64,000 nt of DNA from Dehalococcoidia bacterium (GCA_964291335.2 OZ219748.1:683711-747710), one strand, 5' to 3'; shown: positions 25,924-54,386, numbered from the stretch's first letter. Notes: generated by a model from the letters alone, not told the origin. Program-made: numbers and translations.

Positions 25924-25925
25924 GG

Positions 25926-29212: not shown

Positions 29213-29218
29213 TTATCC

Positions 29219-29282: not shown

Positions 29283-29288
29283 TAGACA

Positions 29289-29320: not shown

Positions 29321-29355
29321 CTCAGCTTCAGCCCCCGACTGGCTGGCGGGCAGCA

Positions 29356-29375: not shown

Positions 29376-29396
29376 AATGTATTACCATGGGGGAAG

Positions 29397-34619: not shown

Positions 34620-34919
34620 TATGCTTTCCTTGAAAGGGTATTGTCTCAATTATACCAGTTTCAGGCCGGCGCAGGGCAGGAAAACTGACCAGGCTTTACC
34701 GGCTGCCAGGTATTCCCCAGGCGCAGGCGGGGAAACCCGGGGCAGTGGCGCCGCGCCGGCCCCGGTGATTGGCTTGCTTGGGAGCTTGCTTTCAGGTTGT
34801 GCGCCAGTCCGCAGCCAGCGCCTTGCTCCCACCAGTAATCCAACGGCTGGAGCGGTTTGGAGGAGGCGCTTGAGCGTGCCATTCCGTCTCCATCAGTCGG
34901 TTTAACCGGGAGGCGGCGG

Positions 34920-35394: not shown

Positions 35395-36165
35395 CTACAC
35401 GGTAGCAAGTCGCCTAATATCCTGTTTTCCCTTATCACAGAATTCACTCAGCGCCGAATACTGGGTATCTGCGTTGTTTGTAAGGTAACGCCTTTCCCTG
35501 ATGCCCAGCGCCTCCATGTTTTCGTGGACTACCAGACTTATGAATGGCAGTTTGGCTTTCTGAAACTCCAGCAAGGCTATGGCTACATTCTTGGCCTTGT
35601 CATTGCCCAGAACCCCGAACAGATAGAAGTTACGCTGGTTGTGTGTCAGCTGCCAATCCACACCAATCAGGTAGTCCGCAACCGGATACTGGTCGGCAAG
35701 CGGCTGGTATTCCGTCAAGTCGGAGGTAATATATGCTTTCAGGTCATCGTAAAATGCGCTGTGGACAACCTCCCTTCTCCAGAATCGCATATTGCACACT
35801 TTTTGCACACAGCCGGCAAATTGCAGAATGCCCTCTTGCAGCATATTGAGGGGTATGTCCAAATAGAGATTGTCATCGTCGTTCCGGATTCCGTTGTTAA
35901 TCAGAATGCTGTCGAAGACACGACGCCTGGTGTCGGTGTTTATATCGAAGGTGTATGAAAGGCGCATCAGCGTCATTCCGAAATCGCAGACGCGGATATA
36001 ATCTTCACCGCAAGGGCTTTCCTGAAGGTAAATGTCCACCATGTCGGCATCTTCGTGAAGTATGGGAAGGATTAGCTGGTACTTTCCGGGGCGGCGCTCG
36101 TATATATCCAGCACCAAATTTTGCGCCGGCTCAAGGGAAGCTCTGATTTTAGCAAGATCCATCAA
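35395..36165 (-). CDS. Hypothetical protein (256 aa), last gene of the helicase-methylase operon
   Basis: Overlaps the upstream 173-aa ORF by 17 nt. It is visibly more AT-rich than its flanks. I have a faint recollection of DUF1828-type proteins, which I cannot substantiate. Confidence 0.55.
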   Translation of the reverse strand: MMDLAKIRASLEPAQNLVLDIYERRPGKYQLILPILHEDADMVDIYLQESPCGEDYIRVCDFGMTLMRLSYTFDINTDTRRRVFDSILINNGIRNDDDNLYLDIPLNMLQEGILQFAGCVQKVCNMRFWRREVVHSAFYDDLKAYITSDLTEYQPLADQYPVADYLIGVDWQLTHNQRNFYLFGVLGNDKAKNVAIALLEFQKAKLPFISLVVHENMEALGIRERRYLTNNADTQYSALSEFCDKGKQDIRRLATV

Positions 36166-36670
36166 AGAGCCTCCCTTGCAGCATTTCTGGGAAATGATCC
36201 GCGGAATTGGTTATGTTCGCATCGGCAAAGAAAACGCGCAATGCCTGCCCGAAAGTAGCATAGCGATCCGTAATTTCCCGCTTCTTTTCTGGAGGCTGAA
36301 TGCTGCCGGATCCGAGCTCCCCGGCAGTAATTCGGTGGATATGTGGTCTGGCATAATGTCCGTCCAGATGCCGGCCACTCTCGCCGTGGGGGCCGTTATA
36401 GCGAACCAGCGTGATGGTTCCCAAACTGCTTTCGTTGGTTTGATACTGTAAACCAAGCGAGAAATTTTCGATGAACTCGGTATTCTGGCGGATGAAAATG
36501 GTGAAAGCAGCGGCAGTGGAATCGCACGCTGGCATGTCGTTCAGTATCAGGTTGCAGCGTCTTTGCCGCTTTTCCTCTCGGTAGCCCTGATCAGGGTTCT
36601 TTTTGACTATGATTTTGCGGCAGGTTATTAAATCGTGAATTTGCTGGTCGGTCAGCACAAGCGCTCCCAT
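36149..36670 (-). CDS. Hypothetical protein (173 aa)
   Basis: Starts 65 nt downstream of the methyltransferase stop on the same strand. No recognisable motif. Confidence 0.5.
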   Translation of the reverse strand: MGALVLTDQQIHDLITCRKIIVKKNPDQGYREEKRQRRCNLILNDMPACDSTAAAFTIFIRQNTEFIENFSLGLQYQTNESSLGTITLVRYNGPHGESGRHLDGHYARPHIHRITAGELGSGSIQPPEKKREITDRYATFGQALRVFFADANITNSADHFPEMLQGRLFDGSC

Positions 36671-39700: not shown

Positions 39701-40470
39701 GTCCTGGCCTGGTCGGTAGGGAACCTGGCGGTTCTGACGGCATGCTCAAACCATCGGAATAGTTCGCGGTAGAAACTGCGGTTCAGTTCCTCGGTATCCA
39801 GGGCGGCCAGCCAGGCTTCCAGCAGGCCGTCGAAGTTGCGGGGTTTGCCGTGATTATCCATCCAGCACAACCGTTCCGGCAGGGACAGCTCGGCCAGGAT
39901 GTCCTGGTGGGCGCGGTGCGGGTTGACAGGATCGATTTCGCGGATGATGGACACGCTGCCCAGCACATCGCGCTCCGGGTCCCGCCGGTTGGGCCGGCGG
40001 TGGACAAAGGCGAGGGAGATACGGTTGGCGGCGGTGCGGAACAGTACGACCATCGGTATCGGGAAGCGCCGGTTCAGTTCACGGGTGAAAGCGGCGTACC
40101 GGGCTCGGGAGTAGGCGCTGCCGCGCAGCTGCACGGCGGCGAACAGGAAGCTGCGGGCGTTGCTGTCGTCAAAGCCGGCGGCATCCGGCAGCGATTGCCG
40201 GCCTCCCGCCTGAATTTCCTCGCTGGTGAACTGGAACAGAACCTGAACCGACTTCGCATTGTCCAGGAACACCTGCTCCGACTGCGTGCCGGGATTGGCG
40301 GCCGGGAAGCGCCGGGTGAAGTCGCCGGCATTCCCGGATTGACCGGGCAGCGTCCGCTCGCTCCGGTAGCCGCAAACAGCCAGCAGATTGGCAGCTGCCG
40401 CTGCCAGGTCGCGGTCAACCATTGCCGCCAGGGCATCGCAGATAGCGTTTCTGACGTTGGTAGCGCTCAT
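36736..40470 (-). CDS. Large gamma-class N6-adenine DNA methyltransferase with C-terminal specificity domain (Eco57I/PglX/Type IIG-like)
   Basis: 1244 aa. Motifs: GSYYTPRAVVDYMV, motif I LDPAVGSGAFP, motif IV VIGNPPYV, and the TaqI-like C-terminal FGIKTGANAFFYL. Its ATG overlaps the helicase stop (ATGA). Confidence 0.85.
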   Translation of the reverse strand: MSATNVRNAICDALAAMVDRDLAAAAANLLAVCGYRSERTLPGQSGNAGDFTRRFPAANPGTQSEQVFLDNAKSVQVLFQFTSEEIQAGGRQSLPDAAGFDDSNARSFLFAAVQLRGSAYSRARYAAFTRELNRRFPIPMVVLFRTAANRISLAFVHRRPNRRDPERDVLGSVSIIREIDPVNPHRAHQDILAELSLPERLCWMDNHGKPRNFDGLLEAWLAALDTEELNRSFYRELFRWFEHAVRTARFPTDQARTQPAEEHVIRLITRLMFVWFIKEKRLVSEDLFIENRVAQLLKDYDRDNGDSYYRAVLQNLFFATLNTGIDRRMFSAGKNSTHRDFSCYRYRREMADPDALLALFRKTPFINGGLFDCLDSFEATRDGGYRIDCFTDNPQQGSRLSIPNRLFFSGGASNPGLIDLFDRYKFTVEENTPTEQEVALDPELLGKVFENLLAAVNPETQLTARKETGSYYTPRAVVDYMVDEALVATLAQKASADDGDLDHWQERLRCLLDYAFADAGARFTPSEREAIVRAIAGLKVLDPAVGSGAFPMGVLHKLTLALSRLDDGNQLWEALQRELAGQRATDAFQVSRPEERENALAEISRTFEQYRESDFGRKLYLIQNSIYGVDRQPIAAQIAKLRFFISLAIEQQPNDDPADNYGIRPLPNLETKFVAADTLRKLEKPPQMPLGQTDKVQRLEADLAANRERYFHAKNRADKLDCRRRDAELRRQLAAVLQAVGFPAASADQLADWAPFDQNASAADWFDAKYMFGVADGFDVVIGNPPYVRQEGITPKAYKDTLVKQYNDAVTARSDLYCYFYARGLELLRDGGMHVFVCSNSWLDVGYGAKLQEYLLRHAHIQAIYESAIERQFATADINTIISILRKTDRADQNGQDLTRFVSLRADFATALADAGQRREIARTRAALLNGGRADGKYVGDKWGGKFLRAPDIYHHILNRCSGKLARLGDVASVRFGIKTGANAFFYLTPERIAEFSIEPEYCRPAMTTPQESRALLIDPESLPKRLFMCHREKRELAGTGALAYIRQGEAQGYHTRASTNSRQRWYDLGERGNVYLGMNKFVNTTARTFLIVTGSLFSDNFQVMPVAGRVSVVKLCVAVNSTLFQLMLNTESRSNFGQGVLEIQTYETGNLAIVKPELLPEPDIANPGGVKNRLAIFDAALFKETDWDVLKPSPARRQIDAMVFDALGLTQGERDAVYEGVVELVTTRLNKAGSLKARHSPSA

Positions 40471-43400
40471 TTCCTCTCCTTGATGACCAGCCAGGTTATC
40501 AGTTCGAAGTCAGTGTTGTCGCCGGGGGATTCGGAGGCTTTGGGCAGCACGAAGTCGCGCCCGCTGCCCAGGCCTTGCGTTTGTACGGCAAAGTGGCTCT
40601 GCCGGATGTGGGCGATGGCGTCAGTGAGCAGTTTATTATAGCGCGCCATATTACGGCCCTGGTCGGTTTCGCGGTCAAAACGGTCGCACAGTTCGGTAAT
40701 GGGGTGGCTTTCCCCGACGGCGGCCGCTTCGAACACGGTCAGCGCCTGCCGCGCGTTGGCGCAACCGTAACGGATACTGCCGTTATCGTGCAGATAGACA
40801 AAGTAGAAGGGGTGTACCGGGCTGGCGGCCTGCTGGCGTGAACCGACATCGCCGGCGTTGCGCTGGCGCAGGCAGAAGAGTACGCCGGGTTGAATGTCGG
40901 CGCCCGGCCCGTCGCCGGCGACCGCGTACACGCCGGGCGGCATGGCTTCCAGGGCGTCTTTGTTGGCCTCCAGATAGCGCAGCAGCTGGGTCAAAAAATG
41001 GTCCAAGGTGAAGTCGCCCAAGGCCGGCCCGTCGTTCAGGTCTTCGAGGTCAAGGACTTCTTCGCGCAGTCTGAGCAGCTGCTCATCGCGAAAGTTCAGT
41101 TCCAGTTGGGCGTCTTCCTCCGTGAACGGGTCTTCGTCGCCACTGGCGGCCAGGTCGGCCAGCGCCATCCGCGCCTGCACCCGGCTCTCCAGTTTCAGGT
41201 ACACGTCCATATCCGCCGTGGGCCAGTAGTTGAGCATCCGCACCGATTTGTTGCGGCTCCCGATGCGGTCAATGCGCCCGAACCGCTGGATGATTCGCAC
41301 CGGGTTCCAGTGAATGTCATAGTTGATCACCGTATCGCAGTCTTGCAGGTTCTGGCCCTCGGAAATGCAGTCGGTGGCAATCAGCAGGTCGATGTCGGCG
41401 TTGGCGCCGGCGCTGCCGCGGTTGCGGGCCACGGGAGCGAAATTGCTCAGGATGGCATTAAAGTTGTTGTCGCCGACGGCGGTGCGGGTTTCGTCCCCGG
41501 AAACCATTGCCATATTGATGTCCAGCTCTTTGGCCAGGCCGGAAAGGTTGTCGTACAGGTACAACGCCGTGTCCTTGAAGGTAGTGAACACCAGCAGCTT
41601 GCGGTTGGGGCTGCCGTCCTGGTCGATAGCAGGGTTCCGGGCCTTGTCGCGGACGGCCTGCTTGATTTCGCACAGCTTGCCGTCCCGTTCCGGGGTGATG
41701 GCAGCGACTTGCTGCCTTACCCTCTCCAGGGTAGATTTGTCCGCCTGCAAATCAGCCTGCCAGCGAGCCACGTCCAGTTCCGCCAGATGGTAGGCCTGGC
41801 GGCGCCCGCCGACGAAGAATTCTTCGTCTTCCTCATCTGCGTCGGGTCGAGTATCCGTCTCCGTTGCTTCCAGGTTAGCCAATCCGCCCGGTTCATAGCG
41901 CTCAATCTTGTCCAGCAGGCGGTCAATCTTGTCGATGGTGCGCTTCAGGGTCAGCGCCAGGGACCCGGGGGAGCTTTCCAGCCGTTTGAGGAAGTTGGTT
42001 CGCATCATCCCGACCAGAAAACGCTCGCTGTCCCGCTGGTTGAAGTTCTGCCGCTGGCGGGTTTCGGCCAGCTTTTGCAGCCGCGCCGGATCGGTTACGT
42101 ACTCGCTGGGCTGGTACACGGACAGCTTGAACTGACCGATGCGCTCGGCCGTATCCTGATAGGAGAGTTCGCCCTGCAAGTCCGTCTGCGGGTGGCGGTT
42201 CGTTGGGTTTTCCCGCCGGGGGAACTGCCCGATGCGTTCCATTTCGGCAGCGTAGAATTGCTCAATCTGCCGCCGCGAACGCGAGATTGACACGCCATCC
42301 AGCAAACGGAGGAAGTCGGCGCCCAGCCTTTCCAGCAGTTGCGCCTTGCTGCGGCGGCTCCGGTTGGCCTGTTCGGTTTCCCACTGCTTGAACACTCGTT
42401 GGGCTGCCGCCATCACGTTGCGGATGCTGCCTACGCCCAAGCTTGCGCGGAAAGCGCCTTCCCGCCCCTCGGTCATCAGGTAAATCTGGTTTCTCAGGTC
42501 AATCAGCGAGGTATTCACCGGCGTCGCCGACAGCAGCAAAACCCTGGTCCTGGCGCCAGCCCTGATTACTTCGTCCAGCAGACGCCGGTAGCGTTGTCCT
42601 CCGTCGTTGCGGAAATTGTGCGACTCGTCGATAACCACCAGGTCGTAGTTCTGCCAGTTAAAGTTCGCCAGGTTTATGCCGCCCGACGCGCCGGAGTTCC
42701 GGGACAGATCGGTGTGCGCCAGCACAGTGAAGCCGAAACGGTCTTCCGGAAACGGGTTCTGCCGGTGGCCGTAGATGGCCGGATAGAGCGACCAGTTTTC
42801 GAACAGCTTGCGCGGGCACAGCACCAGCGCCCGCTGGTTGCGCAGTTCAAAGTACCTGATTACCGCCAGAGCGGTGTAGGTTTTGCCCAAACCCACACTG
42901 TCGGCCAGGATACAGCCGTTGTGGGCTAACAGCTTGGCGATGGCGCTTTTCGCGCCGTCCTTCTGGAATTCGTAAAGTGCGTTCCAGACCTGGCTGTCCA
43001 TAAAGCCGGTCGCGGTGGCTGCCGCGTCGCCAGCCAATCGGGCATCAATGTCTTTACGGAACAGTTCATACAGTGTCCGGTAATAGATGGCCTCCGGTGC
43101 ATAGTCGCCGCCAAGGCGCTTCAGGGCGTCCAGCACCTCCTGCTTCACGTCCCTGGTGCGCCGTCCGTCGCTCCATAGTCGGTTGAACCAGTCCAGCAAT
43201 TCGGCGAGCGTATCCGCATCTTCAGTAGCCAGATTGATTTCCAGGTTGGGCTGGTCGTTGCCGCCCAGGCCGCGTTTGGTGAAGTTGGAGCTCCCGACAA
43301 CTCCGGTTGCGCTGTCCGCCGACTGGGTGAGGTACATCTTGCCGTGCAGGAAGTTAGCGCGGCTGACCGAGCGGACGGCTACGCTGTCGCGACTCACCCA

Positions 43401-43703
43401 GTCGGCGCACTGCCTGGCCAGGGCCTTCTGCTGCAGGGTATGGTTGGGCGCCAAGCCCCGCTCGGTCAGCTCGAATGACCTGGGGTCGCTGGCGCCGGGG
43501 TCAAGCTCATCTACCGACGTTGGGTCGCCGAAAAGGAAGCGGACGCTGCCAACCCGGGCCAACTCCTCCGCCAGCAGTTCGTAGCCGTAGATTGTGATGT
43601 ACGCCGAGGCCAGGCTGAAGGTATCAGCGTTGCGCAGGCTGCGACGCAGGTGGTCGGCGACGGTGGCGGCCTGGTTGTCCAGTATGCGGTTTGGTAACGG
43701 CAT
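40467..43703 (-). CDS. PLD-family (HKD) nuclease domain fused to an SNF2-type helicase
   Basis: 1078 aa. N-terminal HKD motif FLHGKMYL...VVGSSNFT. Helicase motifs ADSVGLGKTYTAL, VVIDESHNFRN and QRFGRIDRIGS. Confidence 0.85.
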   Translation of the reverse strand: MPLPNRILDNQAATVADHLRRSLRNADTFSLASAYITIYGYELLAEELARVGSVRFLFGDPTSVDELDPGASDPRSFELTERGLAPNHTLQQKALARQCADWVSRDSVAVRSVSRANFLHGKMYLTQSADSATGVVGSSNFTKRGLGGNDQPNLEINLATEDADTLAELLDWFNRLWSDGRRTRDVKQEVLDALKRLGGDYAPEAIYYRTLYELFRKDIDARLAGDAAATATGFMDSQVWNALYEFQKDGAKSAIAKLLAHNGCILADSVGLGKTYTALAVIRYFELRNQRALVLCPRKLFENWSLYPAIYGHRQNPFPEDRFGFTVLAHTDLSRNSGASGGINLANFNWQNYDLVVIDESHNFRNDGGQRYRRLLDEVIRAGARTRVLLLSATPVNTSLIDLRNQIYLMTEGREGAFRASLGVGSIRNVMAAAQRVFKQWETEQANRSRRSKAQLLERLGADFLRLLDGVSISRSRRQIEQFYAAEMERIGQFPRRENPTNRHPQTDLQGELSYQDTAERIGQFKLSVYQPSEYVTDPARLQKLAETRQRQNFNQRDSERFLVGMMRTNFLKRLESSPGSLALTLKRTIDKIDRLLDKIERYEPGGLANLEATETDTRPDADEEDEEFFVGGRRQAYHLAELDVARWQADLQADKSTLERVRQQVAAITPERDGKLCEIKQAVRDKARNPAIDQDGSPNRKLLVFTTFKDTALYLYDNLSGLAKELDINMAMVSGDETRTAVGDNNFNAILSNFAPVARNRGSAGANADIDLLIATDCISEGQNLQDCDTVINYDIHWNPVRIIQRFGRIDRIGSRNKSVRMLNYWPTADMDVYLKLESRVQARMALADLAASGDEDPFTEEDAQLELNFRDEQLLRLREEVLDLEDLNDGPALGDFTLDHFLTQLLRYLEANKDALEAMPPGVYAVAGDGPGADIQPGVLFCLRQRNAGDVGSRQQAASPVHPFYFVYLHDNGSIRYGCANARQALTVFEAAAVGESHPITELCDRFDRETDQGRNMARYNKLLTDAIAHIRQSHFAVQTQGLGSGRDFVLPKASESPGDNTDFELITWLVIKERK

Positions 43704-43985: not shown

Positions 43986-46814
43986 TTACCGGTTCAGGGG
44001 GCCGGCCCACCACCGCAGTCTTCCCTGGGCCTGCCGGTAGGATTCCGGATCGGTAGTTACCCGGCGAGTGATGCCTTGCGGATCGGTCAGTTGCCAATGT
44101 TTGGGGCCGACTTCCCTGACGCGCCAGCCCGGGGGGAGCAGCTCCGGCTGCGCCAGGGGTTTTTCCAGGTCTGCCATGGTAATGCTGGAGGGGGCTGGCG
44201 CGTTGGGGGTTTCTTCCCAGTCGGTGTTAAGTTGATTCAGGTCAAATTCCTTCTCGTGTCGTTCAATCAGTTCAGCCACTTCGGCTTCGATGTTCGCTTC
44301 ATCCCGGATAATGCCCGAAATACCGGCGGCGATAATCGGCGGGTATTCCCCCACGTTGTGCTGAATGTCCCTGAAACGGCGGGCTACCGCATCGTAGGCG
44401 TCATGTTCGGCAGTATTGGCGTAGAACAGGTTGACGATGTGCACCACCGCCCGGGTTTGCCCGATGCGGTCAACGCGTCCGGCGCGCTGTTCCAGGGTCA
44501 TGGGGTTCCAGGGAATGTCGTAATTAATCACGGCGGAGCAGAATTGCAGGTTCAGGGATTCCGAGGCGGTTTCGGTACACAGCAGCAAGCCCCGGGGTTG
44601 TTCCTGAAATTGTTTCAACCGGGTTTCCCGGTCGCCTAACTCTCCGTCCTGCCCGTAAAGTTCGGCAATGTTGGCGCAGCCTTCCTGCCGCAGTTTTTCC
44701 GAGAGCCATTTCTGGGTGTCCCGGAACTGGGTAAACAGCAGAATATAACTATGTCCCTCACCCCGCAGGTCTTCGATCAGCCCGGCCAGTCTCTTTCGCT
44801 TGCTGTCTTGTCCGGTCAGCCGGTCGGCCTGGTCAGCCGCCTCCAGCAGGGCGGCGACGTCGCCGGCGTTGTTCAGGGCCGCGGCGTCCTGCTCGGTAAT
44901 TTCATCCAGGTCGGCATCATCCAGCAGGGTGTTCCAGTCCTCCGAGTCTTCGGAGTCTTCAGAGACTTTGAGGCGCCGCTGGGCGGCGTTGCGCAGGGTC
45001 TGGGCGTAGGCATACGTTGAGGAACCCAGACGCTTGCGGAAAACGGTAGCGATGAAGCCCAAAGCCTGCTGGTTGATGCGGCTGAGGCCATAGCATTGCT
45101 GAATCAGGGGCTTGATGCCTTCGTACAGCTTCCGTTCTGCTTCGGACATATCGATGACGACGTCCTCCGCCCGGCGTTCCGGCACCGGCATGTTCAGCAG
45201 CCCGCGCTGGTGGTATTGGCGCAGGAGTTCCCGGGTATGGCGGCTCATCAGCCGCCTGGCCGGCGCGCTTTTCCGCATGGCCGTCAGGGTGGCATCAAGA
45301 ACGCCGGGTTCGGCCAACTGGCGGGCAACATACTCCTCATTGTCGCTGTTCAGCACAAAGTCCTGGGGTTCCGGCGGGCCGCTCTTGCGCCAGAGGTCCC
45401 GGCAGAATTTCCACTCGGCCAGGTCGGGCTCGTCGGTTCGGTAGAACTGGCGGTATTCAGTGGCGTTCCAGCCTTTGGGTTCCAGCAGTTCCAGCAGCGC
45501 CCAAAGTTCCGCCTGGTTGAGCTGCATCGGCGTGGCGGTAAGCAGCAGCAGTTCCCCGGTTCGGGTGGCCAGCTGCTGCAACAGCTGCAGGTATTTATTG
45601 GGCTGGCGCCGGCTTTCAACGTTCACGTCCCGGAACCGGGCCCGGTGGGCTTCATCCACAATAATCAGGTCGTATTCTCCGCAGGTGGCGAGGAACTCCT
45701 CGGTGTGGCGCACCAGCCACTGGTGGCCGGCAATGGCCAGCGGCGCCTGCCAGGGAGGGCTGGCGGGGGGTTCCTGGTGTCCCCGGTAGTAAAAGCAGCC
45801 GCGGGCATCGATTATCGGCGCGTCGATGGCGAACTTCAGCAGCAATTCGCTCTGCCACTGCCTGACCGCCGCTTTAGGGGCAATGACCAGCGTCCGGCCA
45901 GCCTTTCGCTGGTTGAGCCGGGTTTTCAGGATGATGCCGGCTTGCAGGGTTTTGCCCAGCCCCACTTCATCGGCAATCAGTTTGCGGACGGGGTAGCTGA
46001 AAACGTTCTGCTGGCGGAAACGTTCCTGGTGGGGCCAGAGGGACGTTGGAATGGTGGCGGGGGTGCTGTTCGGGTCAGCAGCCAGCCGGTCATACAGGTT
46101 ATCCCAGTAATCCTTTGCGGCGAGGGACGGGTCGGCGGGCGGCGCGGCCGGGGCCTGTTCAGCAAGCAATTGGCGGAAATTGGCCGGCAGGTCAATAACC
46201 TGGAGGCCAACGGCCTGGTTGTTCCACAGGGTCTCAAACTCGGCCTGGGTATTATCCAGGTATTCGACGCCGCGTTCGCTGGTGTAAACGTGGAAGGACT
46301 CCCAGTTTTTCTGCCAGCCGGCGAGGGTTTCGTTGAGGCTGCCGCTGAAGGCGACCCGGTTGCCCCAGACGTCCGCGACGATGCCGCTCTTGCTGTGGAA
46401 GATGTGGCCGGCCCGGAGGGCGATTTTCACTTCCATAATGCCCCTGGCTGCCAGCCAGTAAGCCAGCTCCAGGTGGCTGCGGCGGGTCAGGTCTTCGGCC
46501 GCGGTAGTCAGCAGCAGGTCTTCCGGCCGGGCCGTCTGCTGCAAAGCGGCTTCGGCGGACATTCGGCCGCGGTGAACCGCCTCAAGCACTTCCGGCGCGA
46601 CGCTGTGGTCGCAGATGAGGCGGATGTGTCCGCCGTTGCGGATGAAGGCGGCGGCCCCGGCAGCGGCGGCCATCAACCCTTCGGCCGTGAAGGTATAGGT
46701 AGTGCGGTCATAGCGCACCGCTTCGGCCAGCAGCGGCTGGTAAAAGCCGGTCAGCAGGTCGGGGCAGTTGCTGTGGTTATAAACCGGCCGCAGGTTCAGG
46801 TCTTTAAGGGACAT
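43986..46814 (-). CDS. PLD-family (HKD) nuclease domain fused to an SNF2-type helicase (helicase component of the Hma-type system)
   Basis: 942 aa. HKD motif HIFHSKSGIV...FSGSLNET. Helicase motifs ADEVGLGKTLQAG, IIVDEAHRAR and QRAGRVDRIGQ. Confidence 0.85.
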   Translation of the reverse strand: MSLKDLNLRPVYNHSNCPDLLTGFYQPLLAEAVRYDRTTYTFTAEGLMAAAAGAAAFIRNGGHIRLICDHSVAPEVLEAVHRGRMSAEAALQQTARPEDLLLTTAAEDLTRRSHLELAYWLAARGIMEVKIALRAGHIFHSKSGIVADVWGNRVAFSGSLNETLAGWQKNWESFHVYTSERGVEYLDNTQAEFETLWNNQAVGLQVIDLPANFRQLLAEQAPAAPPADPSLAAKDYWDNLYDRLAADPNSTPATIPTSLWPHQERFRQQNVFSYPVRKLIADEVGLGKTLQAGIILKTRLNQRKAGRTLVIAPKAAVRQWQSELLLKFAIDAPIIDARGCFYYRGHQEPPASPPWQAPLAIAGHQWLVRHTEEFLATCGEYDLIIVDEAHRARFRDVNVESRRQPNKYLQLLQQLATRTGELLLLTATPMQLNQAELWALLELLEPKGWNATEYRQFYRTDEPDLAEWKFCRDLWRKSGPPEPQDFVLNSDNEEYVARQLAEPGVLDATLTAMRKSAPARRLMSRHTRELLRQYHQRGLLNMPVPERRAEDVVIDMSEAERKLYEGIKPLIQQCYGLSRINQQALGFIATVFRKRLGSSTYAYAQTLRNAAQRRLKVSEDSEDSEDWNTLLDDADLDEITEQDAAALNNAGDVAALLEAADQADRLTGQDSKRKRLAGLIEDLRGEGHSYILLFTQFRDTQKWLSEKLRQEGCANIAELYGQDGELGDRETRLKQFQEQPRGLLLCTETASESLNLQFCSAVINYDIPWNPMTLEQRAGRVDRIGQTRAVVHIVNLFYANTAEHDAYDAVARRFRDIQHNVGEYPPIIAAGISGIIRDEANIEAEVAELIERHEKEFDLNQLNTDWEETPNAPAPSSITMADLEKPLAQPELLPPGWRVREVGPKHWQLTDPQGITRRVTTDPESYRQAQGRLRWWAGPLNR

Positions 46815-46871
46815 GGCTATCCTCGCCGGGCTGCGACTCCGGATATGGCAGCTGCACCCGGTAATCTGAGT

Positions 46872-49800
46872 CTATTCGCCGCCCAGGTTCTGCAACTCCT
46901 GAAATGCCAGCTGCACCCCGGCCGGCGGGGGCGCCGGTTCCTGGTAGAGGAACTGCCACAGGTTCCGCTGGGCCTGATAGTCGTCATGGCCCGGCCGGGT
47001 AGTGCGCGCCAGCGCCTCCAGGGTGGCCTTGAACCGCGGGTCATCGCGGGACAGCCCCTGCCGGGTCAGCCACTCCCCGGCGTCCCCGGTATTGCGGCGG
47101 TCGGTCAGGGCAACGGCGGTATGGGCCGCATCCAGGCTGGATTCGGCCGGCCGGTCTTCCTCGATGTTCCGCGCCGCCAGCCGGTCCCGGGCGCTGAGCA
47201 GCTGCACCTTGTCGCCGTTGAAACGGACCATCCGCTTCAGCGCCGGGTCATTCTTCTCCAGCGGCACCCCCAGGGCGCGGGCCAGCAGGTTAGCTTCATC
47301 GAAGAGCAGGGTATCGTTTTCGGCGGCATCCTTCGCCAGAACGTAAAACCTGGTGGCGGCGTCCACCGGGTCGCTGCTCCACCGCTCGCTGATTTCCCGG
47401 GCCCGGTGGCGGCTGACCTCCCGCCGGGCCACCTGCAGGGCGTCGGTGGGGGTAACCTGGTAAGGCGCCTCCGGCCGCGCCGGGTTGGGCGTATCCCGCC
47501 GGGCGCCCCAATGCCGGCTGATAATCCGCAGCGCCGGCCCAAAGGCGCTCAAGTACAAATCAATGGGCCGCAGCGCCGCCCCGCTCAGGTTCTCCGCAAT
47601 ATCCTTCCGGACAGCTTCGGCAATCAACTCTTCCACCTCATGCCACGGTTCAGGCGCCAGGTTTTCGACCCGGGGCCGGCAGACCAGCAAGAGGGTGGTG
47701 CGGGCGGCGGCCTTGCCCTTGATGTGCAGGCTGGATTCGGCCTCGGTTTTGACCGGCCAGGTGCGGGTGATGGTGAAGCCGGCTTCAATCAGGGCGACGG
47801 TAAGGGCGTCCCAGGCGCTGGTGGATTTGTGGTTGAACATGACCACCATAACGCCCGCCCGCTTGATTACCCGGCGGCATTCGGCGAAGATTTCGGCCAT
47901 CTTCCGCTGGTAGTCGGCCAGGGCCAGGGCGGCGGCGGATTGAGCTTTATCGGCCCGGTTCCGGAAGCGGACCGGGCTGGCGATGGCCTCCTGCTCCTTT
48001 TCGGTGAGGTAGTGGGCAAAGTTCGCCGGGAAGACATAGCCGGCAGTCCGCTTGAGCCAGACGTAGAAGAAGTCGGACAGTTCGGCGAAGCAGACGTTCT
48101 GCTCGTAGGGCGGGTCGAAGACGATGCAGTCGACGGAGGCGTCATCCAAAGGCAGGTCGCGGGCGTCGCCCTGGATGACTTCGGACGGCCGGGCTATATT
48201 CGGCCTGACCGTTTCGGTCAGCAGCCGGCCGTCGCTATTACTGGCCTGCTTGCCATAGCCGACCATATAGATAATTTGGGACAGACATTCGTCAATATCA
48301 TCCAGGGCCCACTCAAGGCCCAAGCCTCGACAGATTATCGCCATCTCGGAGTAGTTCCACTTAAACCCGAAGTCATGGGTATCAAAAATCCCGGCAACTA
48401 CTTGCCGGTTGGGATGCCATCTACACAGCAGGTTATTGTTGTTAATCATCTTGTCCAAAGCAATGGCGATGTAGCCCCAGGCGGCCTGGCGGCACTCATC
48501 CAGCCGGCCGGCGGCCCGGTCCTTTTCTACGCCCTGGCGGAAGGCCTGCACGCAATGGCCGTGGGCCAGCTGCTGCCGCGGGTTGAACATATCGCTCCAG
48601 GCAGGCATCCCGTAGTAAATGGCGTCTTTGGTTTTGTTGCCCTCGGGCAGGGCCTCATTGGGCAGCACATCTTCGGCCTCCCATTGGGGGGACAGGCGGG
48701 CCAGTGCGGCGGCGGCGTAGGTATTGCCGGCGAAGTGGCGTTCCCCGGGTTCGGCGAAGACGCGGCAGGTGGTTTCCTTCTTCTTCTGTTTGCCGGCTTT
48801 GGTCCGGTCATACCAGCTGTCCCGGTAAACGATGCAGTAGAGGCGGTGGCCCATGCGGCCGGCCTGGGCTTCCTGTGCCAGGTACGCTTTGGGGGTGGTG
48901 CTGCCGCAGGCGGGGCAGGTGGCGATGGCCCGGGCGACGGTGCCGCTGCTGGGCGTCCGGTCGGGGTACAAAGCGGCCAGGTGGCAGGTTCGGCCGGCGG
49001 CCCGGCAGTCGGCGCAGTCGGCCCGGTGATGCACAATGCCCATCCCAATCGGGTCGGCGGCCGGGTCCAGCCGAATGCCGGTGCCTTTGTTATCCAGCCG
49101 CCAGTTGGGGCTGAGGGGAATCCGGCGTTGGCAGGACAGGCAGGCGGCCGTGCGGGCCCACAGATACGTTTGGGCGTATCTGTGGGCCCGCACGGCCCGG
49201 TGCAATTTTTTAGAACAAGTGTTTGTATTATGCTGACAGCCTTTAATGGCGCAGGCAGCCTGCGGGTGGGGGCAATCGCCGCCGGCGCAGTCGGGAGCCG
49301 GCTCTTCCGGGTAAACGCCGGTCACCAGCTCGTTTACCCGTTCCAGGTAATCCTTGCTGATTTCCCGGTAGTGGGCCAGCAGCGGGTAGCCGTACTGCTG
49401 CGGCCACTGGCAGGTGGCCCGCAGGATGTGGCCGGCCACCGGGTTAAGCTCGTTGGCAACGGTCGGCAGGCCCAGCCGCCCGGCCTCAAAGGGGATGGAG
49501 CCGCCCCCGGCGGTTACGTCCAGCACCAGCGGGGCGTCAACAGCGTCAGCCAGGTGGTCATTGAGCCATTGCCGTTCCCGGCTGGTCGGGTTATGGGTGA
49601 AGGCGCGGCGGCGGGCGCCGTAGCCCTCCTTGTCCCGTTGGCCGGATTCGGCAGCGGCGGCCAGCCGCCGGGCCGTTTCGTGAATATCATGACTGGTTCC
49701 CAGCAGGTGATATACCGACTGGCGGGTTTGCTCAGAGTCGGCAGATTGGGGAAGCAGGGACAGCAGCACGGAAGCGCGCGAAGGGGCCAACGGCCGCCGC

Positions 49801-49988
49801 GCCCACCAGACATGGAGCCAGTTTACCGGAGGCAAAGCAGAGGCAGCAGAGCGCTCCCGTATGGATTCGGTTGATATTTGGTTCACCGGGAACCACTTTT
49901 CGATGAGGCGGGGCTGTATCGCTGTATCCGCTTCGCCGGGGAAGTAACCCTCCGCCGGGGTTTCTGCCGCAGGTATCATCCGGTTCAT
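46872..49988 (-). CDS. DUF1156-type DNA methyltransferase with zinc-ribbon inserts
   Basis: 1038 aa. N-terminal WFPVNQIS...WLHVWWARRPLAPSRA (DUF1156 signature), CxxC pairs (CLSCQ, CPACGS), and the catalytic IVFDPPYEQN (DPPY). Confidence 0.85.
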   Translation of the reverse strand: MNRMIPAAETPAEGYFPGEADTAIQPRLIEKWFPVNQISTESIRERSAASALPPVNWLHVWWARRPLAPSRASVLLSLLPQSADSEQTRQSVYHLLGTSHDIHETARRLAAAAESGQRDKEGYGARRRAFTHNPTSRERQWLNDHLADAVDAPLVLDVTAGGGSIPFEAGRLGLPTVANELNPVAGHILRATCQWPQQYGYPLLAHYREISKDYLERVNELVTGVYPEEPAPDCAGGDCPHPQAACAIKGCQHNTNTCSKKLHRAVRAHRYAQTYLWARTAACLSCQRRIPLSPNWRLDNKGTGIRLDPAADPIGMGIVHHRADCADCRAAGRTCHLAALYPDRTPSSGTVARAIATCPACGSTTPKAYLAQEAQAGRMGHRLYCIVYRDSWYDRTKAGKQKKKETTCRVFAEPGERHFAGNTYAAAALARLSPQWEAEDVLPNEALPEGNKTKDAIYYGMPAWSDMFNPRQQLAHGHCVQAFRQGVEKDRAAGRLDECRQAAWGYIAIALDKMINNNNLLCRWHPNRQVVAGIFDTHDFGFKWNYSEMAIICRGLGLEWALDDIDECLSQIIYMVGYGKQASNSDGRLLTETVRPNIARPSEVIQGDARDLPLDDASVDCIVFDPPYEQNVCFAELSDFFYVWLKRTAGYVFPANFAHYLTEKEQEAIASPVRFRNRADKAQSAAALALADYQRKMAEIFAECRRVIKRAGVMVVMFNHKSTSAWDALTVALIEAGFTITRTWPVKTEAESSLHIKGKAAARTTLLLVCRPRVENLAPEPWHEVEELIAEAVRKDIAENLSGAALRPIDLYLSAFGPALRIISRHWGARRDTPNPARPEAPYQVTPTDALQVARREVSRHRAREISERWSSDPVDAATRFYVLAKDAAENDTLLFDEANLLARALGVPLEKNDPALKRMVRFNGDKVQLLSARDRLAARNIEEDRPAESSLDAAHTAVALTDRRNTGDAGEWLTRQGLSRDDPRFKATLEALARTTRPGHDDYQAQRNLWQFLYQEPAPPPAGVQLAFQELQNLGGE

Positions 49989-49992
49989 TTAA

Positions 49993-50574
49993 TTACCTCA
50001 CAGCTTGTGAGAACATCAAATTCTTCGTAAGGCGGCCCCGTCGCAAAGCCGCCAAATACGGCAGCTTCCTCCTTCTGTTTTCCCAATGCAGCCGGCGCCC
50101 CGCTTTAAGTTCCGGTTTGACAACTTTTGTCCCTCTCCGATGCAGGTATTTCCGTTTTTTGATGCGCAGCGGCGTGCGCGTCGCTGCCTTTACCCGGAGC
50201 GGAGGCTGTTTTGTGTCTGCCGGTCGGGTTTGGCCGGGAGTATCGGTTCTTACGTAATAGTCCGTTTCCAGCAAGTCTGCCTGGTCCGTGATGGGGGTGG
50301 ACTGACGGAGCAGGGTTATCCCGTCGGCGTCCGCGCCCATTCTGGCGGTGTACCACTCGCCGGCGGGGGAAGCCCGCAGCAGGCTGCGCAGGCCGACTTG
50401 CCCGGCCTTGAACGCGGCCAGGTCTTCGCGGGTAGCCGGCGCCATGAAGTACTCGCACCCGGTTTGGCAGTCGTCGTCATGCACTGCGATATAACGCCGT
50501 CCGGTTTCGTCCTCAGCTTCGAAAATCAGTTCACAATCGTAGTAGAGTATCGATTCTTTGAACGCGACTTTCAT
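49993..50574 (-). CDS. Hypothetical protein (193 aa) with a strongly basic C-terminal tail, embedded in the Hma-type operon
   Basis: The Met at 50574 forms an ATGA overlap with the upstream stop. The stop lies 4 nt before the methyltransferase ATG. The N-terminal half is acidic/globular (MKVAFKESILYYDCELIFEAEDETGRRYIAVHDDD) and the C-terminal ~70 aa are K/R-rich. Confidence 0.55.
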   Translation of the reverse strand: MKVAFKESILYYDCELIFEAEDETGRRYIAVHDDDCQTGCEYFMAPATREDLAAFKAGQVGLRSLLRASPAGEWYTARMGADADGITLLRQSTPITDQADLLETDYYVRTDTPGQTRPADTKQPPLRVKAATRTPLRIKKRKYLHRRGTKVVKPELKAGRRLHWENRRRKLPYLAALRRGRLTKNLMFSQAVR

Positions 50575-50984
50575 GCTGTCACCTTGCAGTTTCCGCTCGG
50601 GTCGAATGCTTGCGACGGCCACCAGGTTTGATGCCAGTTTTTTTCAACCGGGTTCAGTTTACCGGCCCCGGCGGAAATGGTCAGTTCGCCGATAGCCTGC
50701 CACCGGGGCGTTCTGCTCCGACCTTTCCTGTTGGGGGTTCCCAGCAGCAGACTTTGCGCGGCTTCCAGCGATGCCCATAAGGACACGCCACTCTGTTCAC
50801 AGGGTGTCCTGGGGATTTCCGGGTTCGGCGCTCCGTGATTCTTCACATAGGAATCAAAGTCGCCTTGCTCGGGGGTTGTGGTTTTCAATAGTCGATACCG
50901 CACCGTCCGCTCTGCTATGTCCTGCGCGCCGGGCGGAGGGCAATTCGGCGGCAAGGTCTCGCGGTATTGCAATCTGCGCTCCAT
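50571..50984 (-). CDS. Hypothetical protein (137 aa) embedded in the Hma-type operon
   Basis: The internal Met at 50984 shares one nt with the upstream stop (TGATG). The sequence is MERRLQYRETLPPNCPPPGAQDIAERTVRYRLL...CEQSGVSLWASLEAAQ...HQTWW. No family name can be assigned. Confidence 0.5.
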   Translation of the reverse strand: MERRLQYRETLPPNCPPPGAQDIAERTVRYRLLKTTTPEQGDFDSYVKNHGAPNPEIPRTPCEQSGVSLWASLEAAQSLLLGTPNRKGRSRTPRWQAIGELTISAGAGKLNPVEKNWHQTWWPSQAFDPSGNCKVTA

Positions 50985-51421
50985 CACCCATACATCAAGG
51001 TCAAGGCGTCCAGCACCCGGCGGGGGCGGTTGCGGTTCTTGTGGCAGGCGTACCACCAGCTGCTTTCGCAGGGGTGGAAATCGGCGATGGCCCGGGCCAG
51101 CCGTTCCGCTTTATCGGCTCTTTCCGTTCCGCTTACCGCATCCAGCAGCAACCTTACCTGGACGGCGGTTTCCTCGGTAATGGGGTGATACTGGCGTCCC
51201 GCTGCTTCCTGGGGACGCAGCCGCCGGCCCTGGTGGTTCCACAGGATGGTGGAAATGTGCGCCACACAGCGATTATACAGCGTTCCGGTGGCGTATTGCA
51301 GGCGGCGTCCGTTGCGGCGGGACGATTTGCCGGCCAGGGTAACCGACAGCCGCCGGTTGCCCCTGGAATCGTGGTCCAGCAGCAGGCCGTAGTCCCTGGG
51401 GGTTTCGCGCAGCAGGGTCAT
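50984..51421 (-). CDS. Small partner protein of the DUF499 ATPase (possibly DUF3780-type)
   Basis: 145 aa, starting 1 nt after the ATPase stop. The family name rests on gene context and memory only. Confidence 0.5.
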   Translation of the reverse strand: MTLLRETPRDYGLLLDHDSRGNRRLSVTLAGKSSRRNGRRLQYATGTLYNRCVAHISTILWNHQGRRLRPQEAAGRQYHPITEETAVQVRLLLDAVSGTERADKAERLARAIADFHPCESSWWYACHKNRNRPRRVLDALTLMYG

Positions 51422-51422
51422 T

Positions 51423-54386
51423 TCAGGTTCCTTTCAAGTCGCGAAAAGAAACGTGGATGGTGGCATCAACCTGGTTATTCAGCTTTTCCAGCACGCCCGG
51501 AGCGATTTCCGGCGGCAGCTGAATATCGATATCGGCAATAGCGGCGCCGGCCTTATCCATAATCCGCCTGACCGAATTGGCGTAGTCCTTGAACTCGCTG
51601 GGCGTTGCCCCGATGATAGCCAGCTGGAGTTTGGCGTTCTGGGCCTTCAGGGTAATGGCAATGCCCTGGTCGCCGCCCTGGGCAATGCTGGCCACCTGGT
51701 CGGCCAGGACCGGGTTGGCCCCCTGAACTCGGCAGGAGGCCAGGGCAGCCCAATCGTGCCGGTGCTGCTCCGCGAACTCCCGGACCGCCTGCCAGGCGGC
51801 CCGGCCGGGCCTGGAGCCGCTGGTGAACTGCATCTGATGCTTCTCCTCGCGCACAACGTCGGGATCATCAGGCTTATTTGGTGGCGGAGGTGGGGGTGGG
51901 GGAGGGGGCGGCGGTTTTGGTTCAAACCCCTTCACCCAAACCCGCCAGCCAGCGTCGTAGCCGGCCGGGTTGATTTCGCCCTGGAGAGTTTTCAGGTGCA
52001 GGGCCTCGTTTCTGACGCCGTCGGCAAGCATGGCCTGCCAGACAGCCTGATTGAGGACGATGCGGAGTTGGGGGGTGCGGGCGAAATGTTCCCGCAGTTC
52101 CCCCAGGGTGGAACCCTTTTCGTTGGCGATGATGCTTATGCCGGCCCAGACGTCCTTGTGCAGGCCGGCGTTGTCCGACTTCAGGATTTGGTCGGCCAGG
52201 GCGCGGAAGATAGCGTCCTGCCCCTTGCCGACAGCGTCGGTCATGGATTCCAGGGCCCGATGTTCCAGGTGGGTATTGGCTTCGGGCCATTGATGCTGGA
52301 CGCTGTTGCCGGCGGAGAAGAGGTGGGTAAACTTGTTCTGAATTCCAACGGTGGCGTTCTTCTCGGCATTGGCGCGGACAGACTCCAGGGTATCCCGCCG
52401 GTGGGGAGCCAACGGCCCGGAAGGGTTTTTCAGCAGCCGGTCGGCGGCTTCCATCACGGCCAAATCTTCACGGATACCAGCAAGGTTGGCGTCATGGGCG
52501 GCCAGCAGCAGGGCGTTGTTGGGGTACTGCCGGGCGGCGCTGCCATTGTTGGCGCTGCTGTGGCGGTGCAGCTCCAGCAGTTCCTCGTTCTGCATGCCGT
52601 TGCCGGCATTGCCGGCGTCCGTCCAGTTCCAGTGTTCCGGGTTGATGATGCCCAGCGCCGCCTGGCGCGGGTCATCCGGCAGGTTGGACTCCCGGGAGGG
52701 GAATAGGACGATTTCCAGCCGGTCTGCCTGGCGGCTGTTCCCCCCGTAAGCGCTTCTGACGGCGTTCTGAAACAAGCCGGCCATAACGTCAGAACCGGAG
52801 CGGATAGCGTCTTTAGCGGCAATCAGCTCCTTCATTACGTTGGCCTCTTTGTTGAACCGTTTCCGCTGCGTATCGAGGCTGTCATCCAGGTAGATTGCCT
52901 GGCTGAGGAACCGCTTTACCGCCTCGACGATGACGCCAAAGTCGTCGTTCCGGGGCGAGAGCAGGGCTTCGGCGATTTCGTCGGCATAGAGGCCGCTGCT
53001 GCTGTCGGGGGCGATGCTGCCCAGCAGCATGGTCACGGCGACCGGCCCGGCCAGGCTGTCGTTGGTTCTGCCGACGGCGCTGTTCGGGGCCAGGATGTCG
53101 GATTCAATTGCCGGGTCCAGCATCGCAAACCCCTGCCGGTTGATTAGTTCATCCCGAATGGCCGGCGCTTCAGGGGTAACGTGGCAGGGGTGGACCAGGA
53201 AGGCCTGGGGGTCCCGGTTTTGTATCTCCAGCAGGGTATTTACCATCAGCCGCAGGGTGCCCCGAACCCTCTGAAAGTTGGTGTTGGCCGACATTTTGTC
53301 GGTGATGATGCCGATAAGGGCCGGGTGAAAGGGGTAGGCGTCATAGAAGGCCTGGTAGTTCAGCCTCTCCCCGGAGCGCCCGTTGCGGCCGGCGATACCG
53401 GCGTAGGCGTGGGCGGTGTTTTGCCGGGCGGTTTGGTCGATGCTGCGGAACAGCCGCTTGCGCAGAATCTCCGGCAGGTCGCTGGCTCCGGAGGGCGCCA
53501 AAGGGCGGTTATACCGCGCCAGCTGGGAGTTGATTCGCTCCAGCATTTCGGTAACCTGAATAACCCGAAAGGCATCCGGCGGGGATTTCCGCTCTTCATC
53601 CGCACAGGGTTTCAGCTCTTCGTGGGAATCCTCCGGGGAGGTGATAACCAGCGCAGCGTTGGGGCAGCTGGCCACCGCGTCGGCGATGGCGCTGATTGTG
53701 GTCAGCACCCCTTCCCTGCTGGCCCCGGAATTAGCGTCAGCATACTGGTTGACCCGGCTGATGTATTGCACCAGCTCATCGATGACAATCAGGGTTGGCT
53801 CGTCGCCAATCAGCCGCTGCAAGGTTCCAGCGCCCGGGTCAAGCAAGTTCCGGTCGGCCCCGCCCTCGACAAAGGCCTGATATTCCCGTCGGCTGGACGG
53901 GTTGCCCAACTCGTAAAGCAGGAAACCGGCCAGGCTGTAAGCCCGGCTGCCATCCCCTCTCAGTTCCGCTCCGGTGGCTACGTTATGCTTGGCGCCGTCG
54001 AAGGCCACCACCCGGGCGGCAGTCGGGGCGATCCCGGCAACGCTGCGCCACCAGGGGAGTTCCGGGTGCCTGGCAGCGGCGGCCAGCAGCAGCAGGCTGT
54101 GGGTCTTGCCGCCGCCGTAGCGGTTATACAGTTGATAGACTGACGGGCTGGTGGCGGTATGTTCCCGGTTCAGCCGGGCGGTTGCCATCCGGAGAAAATC
54201 GGCGGTTGCCCTGGTAAGAAAGGTGCTGTCCAGGAATTCAGCAGCAGATTGCGGAGTAGCCAGTTCCCGCTCCAGGCCGTCAGTCAGGTCGGCGGCGTAC
54301 TGGTCGCCGGCTATCTGCACATCCCGGGTAGGACAGGCCGTCAACAGAGGCGTTAAATCAGCCATCAAGACATTTCCTCCTGCCAT
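51423..54386 (-). CDS. DUF499-type AAA/P-loop ATPase (ATPase component of the Hma-type system)
   Basis: 987 aa. Walker A YNRYGGGKTHSLLLL and Walker B LIVIDELVQY. A run of 12 prolines (DNA 51879-51914) separates the body from a C-terminal domain. Confidence 0.8.
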   Translation of the reverse strand: MAGGNVLMADLTPLLTACPTRDVQIAGDQYAADLTDGLERELATPQSAAEFLDSTFLTRATADFLRMATARLNREHTATSPSVYQLYNRYGGGKTHSLLLLAAAARHPELPWWRSVAGIAPTAARVVAFDGAKHNVATGAELRGDGSRAYSLAGFLLYELGNPSSRREYQAFVEGGADRNLLDPGAGTLQRLIGDEPTLIVIDELVQYISRVNQYADANSGASREGVLTTISAIADAVASCPNAALVITSPEDSHEELKPCADEERKSPPDAFRVIQVTEMLERINSQLARYNRPLAPSGASDLPEILRKRLFRSIDQTARQNTAHAYAGIAGRNGRSGERLNYQAFYDAYPFHPALIGIITDKMSANTNFQRVRGTLRLMVNTLLEIQNRDPQAFLVHPCHVTPEAPAIRDELINRQGFAMLDPAIESDILAPNSAVGRTNDSLAGPVAVTMLLGSIAPDSSSGLYADEIAEALLSPRNDDFGVIVEAVKRFLSQAIYLDDSLDTQRKRFNKEANVMKELIAAKDAIRSGSDVMAGLFQNAVRSAYGGNSRQADRLEIVLFPSRESNLPDDPRQAALGIINPEHWNWTDAGNAGNGMQNEELLELHRHSSANNGSAARQYPNNALLLAAHDANLAGIREDLAVMEAADRLLKNPSGPLAPHRRDTLESVRANAEKNATVGIQNKFTHLFSAGNSVQHQWPEANTHLEHRALESMTDAVGKGQDAIFRALADQILKSDNAGLHKDVWAGISIIANEKGSTLGELREHFARTPQLRIVLNQAVWQAMLADGVRNEALHLKTLQGEINPAGYDAGWRVWVKGFEPKPPPPPPPPPPPPNKPDDPDVVREEKHQMQFTSGSRPGRAAWQAVREFAEQHRHDWAALASCRVQGANPVLADQVASIAQGGDQGIAITLKAQNAKLQLAIIGATPSEFKDYANSVRRIMDKAGAAIADIDIQLPPEIAPGVLEKLNNQVDATIHVSFRDLKGT

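Follow-up and report, generated by a model that had tools for sequence, protein, structure and literature searches.

A putative PD-T4-10-type gene pair, shortened and diverged, upstream of the methylase in a Dehalococcoidia Hma operon

The operon and its core genes

A six-gene defence operon was analysed in a stretch of 64,000 nucleotides from a Dehalococcoidia bacterium (GCA_964291335.2 OZ219748.1:683711-747710), referred to here in its full length as the window. The operon occupies positions 43,986 to 54,386 and encodes an ATPase (gene A), three small proteins (genes B, C and D), a methylase (gene E) and a helicase-nuclease (gene F); the genes in question are C and D, which lie between the small partner of the ATPase and the methylase. 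An initial annotation had described six co-directional, tightly coupled open reading frames (ORFs), and this description holds, with all six on the minus strand. Read directly from the sequence, the A/B junction is a TGA, one base and an ATG; B and C overlap in TGATG and C and D in ATGA; the D/E junction is a TAA, four nucleotides and an ATG; and a gap of 57 nucleotides separates E from F. In a simple scan, sites resembling promoters or terminators were not in excess within the operon.

Gene A (54386-51423, minus strand, 987 residues) encodes a DUF499 / HmaC AAA+ ATPase. Its translation contains the predicted motifs GGGKTHSLL and VIDELVQY, in which GGGKTH is the Walker A and VIDELV the Walker B motif, and it matches PADLOC HmaC at 4.7e-43, NCBIfam DUF499_antiphage at 4.7e-37 and Pfam DUF499 with E = 7.1e-24 (84 bits, cut-off 23). 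Gene E (49988-46872, minus strand, 1038 residues) encodes a DUF1156 / HmaB N6-adenine methylase with the motifs WWARRPL and DPPY, and matches PADLOC HmaB at 2.3e-62, NCBIfam DUF1156_antiphage at 2.6e-58 and Pfam DUF1156 with E = 2.9e-14 (53 bits, cut-off 24). Gene F (46814-43986, minus strand, 942 residues) encodes an HKD (phospholipase D, PLD)-Snf2 helicase-nuclease, in which a PLDc_2 domain (residues 38-197) is followed by SNF2-rel_dom and Helicase_C. The motifs HSKSGIVAD (HxKx4D), GLGKT and DEAH were found in its translation, and it matches NCBIfam phospholipD_antiphage at 1.2e-96, PADLOC PLD_Helicase at 5.9e-64 and HmaA at 3.4e-46.

The core is Hma, as defined in PADLOC (Payne et al. 2021/2024), a restriction-modification-like system also known as the type-2 BREX-related (BR) system; the scans with PADLOC, Pfam and NCBIfam bear out the initial annotation on this point. 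In the available text of the Hma literature, defence against phage T4 depends on the helicase-nuclease, and 62.7% of Hma loci surveyed across RefSeq genomes contain embedded genes, among which defence systems are numerous, such that the expectation of cargo genes in these operons is also documented. The newer name is used in a report whose available text describes an HKD-nuclease Snf2 helicase and a small stand-alone gene, the latter being DUF3780 in 98% of taxa (NAR 2026, PMC12839542).

Gene B (51421-50984, minus strand, 145 residues) encodes the small partner. It is a conserved partner of the ATPase, as had been proposed, and it already belongs to a Pfam family, DUF7680 (E = 1.1e-10); no Pfam match to DUF3780 was found at E <= 0.01. 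A DUF7680 homologue directly follows DUF499 in all of the related Hma loci examined, and the ratio of nonsynonymous to synonymous substitution rates (dN/dS) of gene B is 0.09-0.12.

Gene C and its family

Gene C (C1; 50984-50571, minus strand) encodes a small basic protein of 137 residues with an isoelectric point (pI) of 9.2. Searches of Pfam, NCBIfam, PHROGs and PADLOC gave no direct match above threshold for either gene C or gene D, and both had been described as having no recognisable domains. Neither is without relatives, however: in a profile search of 1.84 billion cluster representatives the family of C numbered at least 761 at E <= 1e-3, and D corresponds to the N-terminal part of DUF6575-type partner proteins. 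C has 30 close homologues with 57-99% identity, and its relatives are mostly stand-alone proteins of about 125 residues.

The family is linked to PD-T4-10, a two-gene abortive-infection system with overlapping ORFs from E. coli ECOR65 (Vassallo et al. 2022, PMC9519451). According to the available text of that article, the two overlapping genes lie within 1604 nucleotides, the second protein (B) is toxic and is neutralised by the first (A), and neither had a predicted function. The toxicity, its neutralisation and the defence against phage are known for the ECOR65 system only. PADLOC PD-T4-10_A is matched by 63 of 92 diverse members of the C family (best 2.2e-13), and no Pfam family was found in any of the 92. 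C2-type paralogues that adjoin the methylase provide the connection to the window: C finds them with phmmer at 1e-17 to 1e-21, at about 35% identity, and they match PD-T4-10_A at 2e-9 and 2e-8. All of the invariant residues of the family are present in the window copy. From its relationships, gene C appears to encode a PD-T4-10A-type small protein. With the consensus of the family as query, tblastn matched a single Rhodococcus plasmid and no phage record, and profile searches of PDB sequences, with either the C family or its canonical long partners, returned nothing beyond noise (myoglobin, SRP19 and de novo proteins).

The initial annotation noted that cargo genes embedded in such operons have been proposed as defence candidates. 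Genes B, C and D have no match at E <= 0.01 among all PADLOC models, HEC-01 to HEC-09 included. Assignment of C or D as an HEC-type candidate was therefore rejected, since neither matches such a model.

The AlphaFold2 model of C is confident, with a pLDDT (predicted score in the local distance difference test) of 92. Residues C15, P16, R31, G108 and H118 are invariant in the family, and D42, F43, S45, C62, S68 and W122 are nearly so. A Foldseek search of the PDB and a viral library gave no significant match for the model, the best having E = 0.03 and template modelling (TM) scores ranging from 0.3 to 0.46. ADP-ribosyltransferases (ARTs) recur among the top-ranked weak matches in both libraries, and include LT-A, ExoS, CDTa, ScARP, a phage PARP-like protein and a PolyVal ART. 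The model places R31 within its first strand and S68 within its second, and H118 opens strand 118-124; we take these positions to correspond to those of the ART catalytic triad. The third position differs from that of the superfamily, in that it is His118 rather than the Glu of the R-S-E or H-Y-E triads, and no ART match was found at the level of sequence, either by Pfam scan of family members or by PDB profile search. An ART fold for C is therefore a weak lead from the model rather than an assignment; C could equally well have a metal site or be a Cys/His enzyme.

Gene D as a partner domain

Gene D (50574-49993, minus strand, 193 residues) combines a conserved core with a tail that is not conserved. 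Conservation among 13 homologues of 107-152 residues is limited to residues 1 to about 110, and this core (D1, residues 1-110; 50245..50574) appears to be an acidic, DUF6575-like N-terminal domain of a PD-T4-10B-type partner. Residues 12-66 of D align with positions 22-76 of the Pfam DUF6575 profile at 18.7 bits (E = 0.0012), which is under the gathering cut-off of 26.6.

The nature of the domain is clearer from its longer relatives. Across genomes and metagenomes, the gene that follows a C-family gene mostly encodes about 380-390 residues and usually overlaps it by four nucleotides. Pfam DUF6575 is matched by 22 of 26 of these canonical long partners (best 8.5e-33), and the partners in loci L018 and L021 match PADLOC PD-T4-10_B at profile positions 16-125 of 353. 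Both the DUF6575 and the PD-T4-10_B matches fall in the N-terminal part of the long partners, the same region that is matched by D. In the metagenome survey, for which loci were found by a scan with a degenerate DNA pattern, the partner has 130-240 residues in about one-third of cases.

With a conserved part of about 110 residues, D falls short of a full-length PD-T4-10B-type protein of about 350-390 residues and lacks the C-terminal part of about 270 residues found in canonical partners. Judged by these alignments, gene D would encode only the N-terminal domain of a PD-T4-10B / DUF6575-type partner. PD-T4-10B is not equated here with the DUF6575 protein that Vassallo et al. mention, since DUF6575 is not among the HHpred matches for PD-T4-10B visible in the available text. 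The AlphaFold2 model of the core is of moderate confidence (pLDDT 70-88), a Foldseek search of the PDB with it gave only meaningless kinase and OB-fold matches of low TM score, and very few of its polar residues are invariant.

As a separate observation, two canonical partners of about 380 residues (L016:607-1740 and L017:10378-11526) match PADLOC PDC-M63B over their C-terminal two thirds, a match that ties PD-T4-10B-type proteins to another untested defence candidate.

A decayed second pair at the methylase start

The initial annotation had described D as an acidic N-terminal domain with a K/R-rich tail. The composition is as described, with pI 4.5 for residues 1-125 and pI 12.0 for residues 126-193, in which 24 of 68 residues are K or R. 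As a domain, the tail does not survive analysis. The D tail (residues ~111-193; 49993..50244, minus strand) consists of a low-complexity linker followed by the K/R-rich stretch, is missing from all homologues except near-identical ones, is modelled with pLDDT below 50, and overlaps in a different reading frame the decayed 3' remnant of a second C-type gene, psiC2 (49985..50130, minus strand). The 3' 150 nucleotides of the D ORF align with the 3' ends of C2-type genes in loci L011 and L001 (DNA alignment A8), such that the K/R-rich tail is an out-of-frame translation of the pseudogene: the stop codon of D1 has been lost and the ORF runs 68 residues into psiC2. A role for the tail as a nucleic-acid-binding domain was thus rejected, given its lack of conservation, its low pLDDT and the underlying pseudogene, and the apparent K/R-rich domain is a caution for annotation, as an artefact of pseudogene read-through.

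The remnant itself is recognised in two ways, by tblastn, which picks up PYEEFDVLTSCEVIK in psiC2 at E = 1e-4, and by the hidden Markov model (HMM) of the C family, which matches at positions 80-124 over two frames. It has a 16-nucleotide insertion and has lost the HHTWW codons for the invariant His-x-Thr-Trp-Trp. Its TGA overlaps the ATG of the methylase in the usual ATGA arrangement.

The partner of psiC2 has also left a trace. The methylase begins MNRMIPA...PAEGYFPGEADTAIQPRLIEKW, which corresponds to the first seven and last ~20 residues of a D2 domain, with the D2 part of the L001 and L011 methylase fusions as the reference; about 95 residues are deleted in the window. The first ~25 residues of gene E are thus a stub of a deleted D2-type domain, and the start of gene E is the old D2 start codon. 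Together, the C2 remnant and the D2 stub point to a decayed C1-D1-C2-D2::methylase arrangement. As reconstructed from these alignments, the window holds a single C1-D1 pair that is intact, together with a C2 pseudogene and a methylase on which no more than a stub of D2 is left.

Sister loci and methylase fusions

A scan of one genome per species identified 14 loci with gene C, 13 of them in Dehalococcoidia metagenome-assembled genomes (MAGs) and one in a Planctomycetaceae MAG. Seven of the 14 lie inside Hma operons, where the last C-D unit is always directly 5' of the methylase; the other seven are without Hma. Sister Hma operons also carry other cargo, namely DitA/DUF5677, BrnT, a pPIWI-associated nuclease, MNT-HEPN, PDC-M24 and ThsB-TIR with 8xMP, which is never located between D and the methylase.

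An in-frame fusion of the D domain to the methylase is present in L001, L005, L006 and L011, and a degraded remnant of the fusion is found in L013. The two parts are joined by a low-complexity linker of about 30 residues that leads into the PRLIEKW start of DUF1156, and the fusion in L001 was annotated as a single gene of 1127 residues by the source pipeline. At least three types of D are fused in this way. In L015, in L144 and in the window, D and the methylase are separate. The fusions lend some support to the proposal of the initial annotation that C and D could be specificity or sensor subunits of Hma, although this is not the closest of the options that it offered.

The most elaborate arrangement is that of L001 (9500-17900; Dehalococcoidia MAG OZ220464.1), which has four tandem C-D units, the last of them fused to the methylase, and in which the ThsB-TIR and 8xMP genes are located between the methylase and the helicase. 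An orphan D in L001, and P0033, have an in-frame fragment of the methylase N-terminus at the end, and a 52-nucleotide copy of the 3' end of the DUF7680 gene is repeated between the L001 units. Footprints of this kind, from the 3' end of the DUF7680 gene and the 5' end of the methylase, indicate that newer units took the place of others that had formerly been attached to the methylase. The repeated footprints of flanking genes between the C-D units of L001 measure 52 and 118 nucleotides.

C and D as a linked pair

C and D move as one unit and diverge in step. The identity matrices of C and of the adjacent D are correlated, with a Mantel r of 0.74 that was reached in none of 2000 permutations. 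The order of small gene first, with overlapping or coupled reading frames, is seen as the ATGA overlap in the window and is the same in most C-family loci with a readable downstream partner. C is basic and the D core is acidic, with pI values of 9.2 and 4.5.

Both genes are conserved and under purifying selection, which is looser than that on the core gene B. Measured against four relatives each, dN/dS is 0.20-0.28 for the D core and 0.26-0.47 for C, where 0.47, from the comparison of C1 with its closest relative, is the highest value measured. Synonymous divergence (dS) from the sister locus L001/L002 is 0.25-0.38 for C1 and D1 and 0.9-1.2 for A, B, E and F, a difference which indicates that the cassette was exchanged more recently than the Hma backbones diverged.

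Pairs of C and short D are not confined to Hma operons; one is located beside an integrase. Four viral contigs from IMG/VR (L145, L148, L150 and L152) encode C-family proteins, with E values of 5e-23 to 4e-26 for the family HMM; these are four of eight pattern matches in viral contigs.

Other features of the window

The window contains further genes and repeats. A very large CRISPR array at 9757-23580 has 190 copies of a 37-nucleotide repeat with an otherwise identical stem; the hairpin loop is GAAA in 102 copies (9902-17880) and its reverse complement, TTTC, in 87. One TTTC-loop repeat lies at 9757 and the last at 23544. The adjoining cas operon (24086-31583, minus strand) includes a 728-residue ORF that matches Cas3 structures at 8e-111 and a 568-residue ORF that matches Cas8c/Csd1 at 6e-66, and the two matches indicate a type I-C system. 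Directly downstream of the Hma operon, a separate two-gene module (36736-43703, minus strand) encodes a 1078-residue PLD-Snf2 protein (PADLOC C3a139 'HKD+Snf2', 3e-108), which overlaps by four nucleotides a 1244-residue Eco57I-type IIG methylase. Between the cas region and this methylase are two overlapping ORFs of 256 and 173 residues (35395-36670, minus strand). A 279-residue ORF (33810-34649, minus strand) contains about eight tandem units of 21 nucleotides, or seven residues, with the consensus FMEKT(T/N)A (repeat at 34300-34465).

Interpretation

The pair is probably a diverged and shortened PD-T4-10-type cassette, lodged in the Hma slot 5' of the methylase and acting as a cognate C:D switch. 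In short, basic C would bind its cognate acidic D domain, much as A neutralises B in PD-T4-10. D would be a portable docking domain that places the protein attached to it under the control of C; this protein may be the toxic C-terminal part in canonical systems and the methylase in fused Hma loci. In the window the tethered copy has been lost; the untethered C1-D1 pair probably still forms a complex, expressed with the operon, that would either affect Hma in trans at most or function as a remnant module in its own right. Among the options raised by the initial annotation, that of an effector/antitoxin-like pair or independent mini-system came closest, given that C-D is autonomous, widespread and related to PD-T4-10.

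Several observations weigh against the switch. Neither C nor D of the window matches the PD-T4-10 models, even at E <= 10, such that the link to PD-T4-10 is transitive, and for D it consists of two weak matches of relatives to PD-T4-10_B (7e-5 and 9e-4) together with synteny. In the available text of Vassallo et al. (PMC9519451), HHpred gave no family for either PD-T4-10 protein. The invariant Cys, Arg, Ser and His of C suggest an enzyme or metal site rather than a simple binder, and the short D partners are themselves conserved, such that the N-terminal domain may be active in its own right rather than a mere docking domain. The pair is also found away from any methylase: C and a short D occur alone next to type I-E cas genes in L142, and in four Dehalococcoidia loci (L007, L008, L009 and L014) a D-like ORF without a stop codon continues in frame into the gene for a GMC oxidoreductase, whose own Met is retained immediately ahead of the FAD-binding GGGSAG motif (for example, L008:10393-12327). 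These arrangements indicate that the function of C-D is not specific to the methylase.

Two alternatives are unlikely, to a like degree, and deserve to be weighed against the cognate switch. According to the first, C-D is an independent and functional toxin-antitoxin or abortive-infection mini-system, in which short D is the toxin and C the antitoxin, the slot is an insertion hotspot and the fusions are by-products of packing. PD-T4-10 is itself a validated system of the toxin-antitoxin type, and the reported frequency of embedded genes in Hma, many of them defence systems, fits this view, as does the presence of DitA, BrnT, MNT-HEPN, ThsB-TIR and PDC-M24 in the same operon of sister loci. Pairs of C and short D stand alone in other defence islands and near integrases, the C family reaches four viral contigs, about one-third of metagenome partners are as short as 130-240 residues, and selection on both genes is purifying. 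The position of the pair is harder to reconcile with a hotspot, since no other cargo comes between D and the methylase and the last C-D unit always abuts the latter, and in-frame fusion of at least three D types is hard to see as an accident. Toxicity, moreover, is known only for the long form, canonical partners having about 385 residues, and D has very few invariant polar residues.

The second holds that C and D are dedicated accessory subunits of Hma, with D as a detachable N-terminal domain of the methylase that acts in trans in the window and C as a sensor or regulator that gates methylation or restriction. The contrast between fused loci (L001, L005, L006 and L011) and split ones (L015, L144 and the window) is a Rosetta-stone pattern, translational coupling runs throughout the operon, and the seven loci inside Hma always place the pair directly 5' of the methylase. 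The window itself argues otherwise: the methylase-attached C2-D2 has been destroyed while the methylase ORF is intact, which means that the methylase does not need an attached copy. C1-D1 has also been exchanged independently of the backbone, half of the 14 loci are without Hma, and the wider family occurs without any methylase.

That C1-D1 is a functionless orphan of cassette turnover, kept by recent arrival and linkage, is improbable: decay is evident in the adjacent C2 and D2, D is missing two thirds of the canonical partner at the C-terminal end and has lost its stop to run 68 residues into a pseudogene, and the dN/dS of C1 against its closest relative is the highest measured, but both ORFs are intact with every invariant residue of the C family in place, dN/dS is well under 1 against four relatives each, and the short-D architecture is conserved in many genomes, stand-alone pairs included.

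The cognate switch also has a bolder extension, which is doubtful at present. The Dehalococcoidia Hma methylase may carry a swappable N-terminal DUF6575-like domain, with a cognate PD-T4-10A-like partner encoded upstream and stacks of orphan C-D pairs, flanked by footprints of the DUF7680 3' and methylase 5' ends, as a reservoir for switching of the N-terminal cassette, in a mirror of CDI (contact-dependent inhibition) and Rhs loci. If so, a restriction-modification-like system would gain an exchangeable, infection-responsive methylase switch, in which C, perhaps a non-canonical ART-like or Cys/His enzyme, could act by gating, modifying or processing the methylase that bears D.

Two genes of a defence operon that had been without assignment can now be placed in a large, unnamed family tied to PD-T4-10. 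The partner is modular, in that the small protein is accompanied by a constant N-terminal domain and the remainder is a part of about 270 residues, a methylase, an oxidoreductase or nothing, which directs the study of PD-T4-10 to the interface of A with the N-terminal domain of B. The fusions suggest that some Hma methylases are under the control of a C-D module.

Comparison with known systems

The kind of operon is already known, as is the PD-T4-10 defence family, which is validated but mechanistically unexplained and is present here in a truncated form. With Hma and type-2 BR systems the operon shares an AAA+ ATPase of the DUF499 type, a DUF1156 N6-methylase and an Snf2 helicase that bears an HKD nuclease at its N-terminus, together with the placement of all genes on a single strand, a small stand-alone gene within the locus and embedded cargo. 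It differs in that the small gene matches DUF7680 rather than the reported DUF3780, and in that its NCBIfam scores are all far under the curated cut-offs, which suggests a divergent Hma lineage. The methylase of this clade often has an extra N-terminal DUF6575-like domain, which is unmentioned in the available text of the Hma and BR literature. More generally, the association with the methylase N-terminus in sister loci is not described in the available texts on Hma, BR or PD-T4-10.

HEC-01 to HEC-09 (Payne et al. 2024 preprint) embody the same idea of defence genes nested between hma genes. C and D differ from them in having no direct model match, in being placed against the start of the methylase and in being fusable to it.

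PD-T4-10 shares with the pair the two overlapping ORFs with the small protein first, and the occurrence in defence islands and on mobile elements. The C family matches PD-T4-10_A and the N-terminal domains of the partners match PD-T4-10_B, whereas the window copies are too diverged for a direct match to the models and D retains only the N-terminal ~110 residues of a partner of ~350-390. The available text of Vassallo et al. describes no protein in which the N-terminal domain of the partner is fused to a methylase or to a GMC oxidoreductase.

The arrays of C-D units have a counterpart further afield. Polymorphic toxin loci of the CDI and Rhs types carry arrays of orphan toxin-immunity cassettes. 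As in those arrays, divergent cognate pairs stand in tandem, and displaced copies keep fragments of the gene to which they were formerly joined. Here the pattern, as read from sequence alone, would be the mirror image, in that the cassettes are upstream and the part exchanged is the N-terminus of a methylase, where CDI and Rhs cassettes exchange the C-terminus of a secreted toxin.

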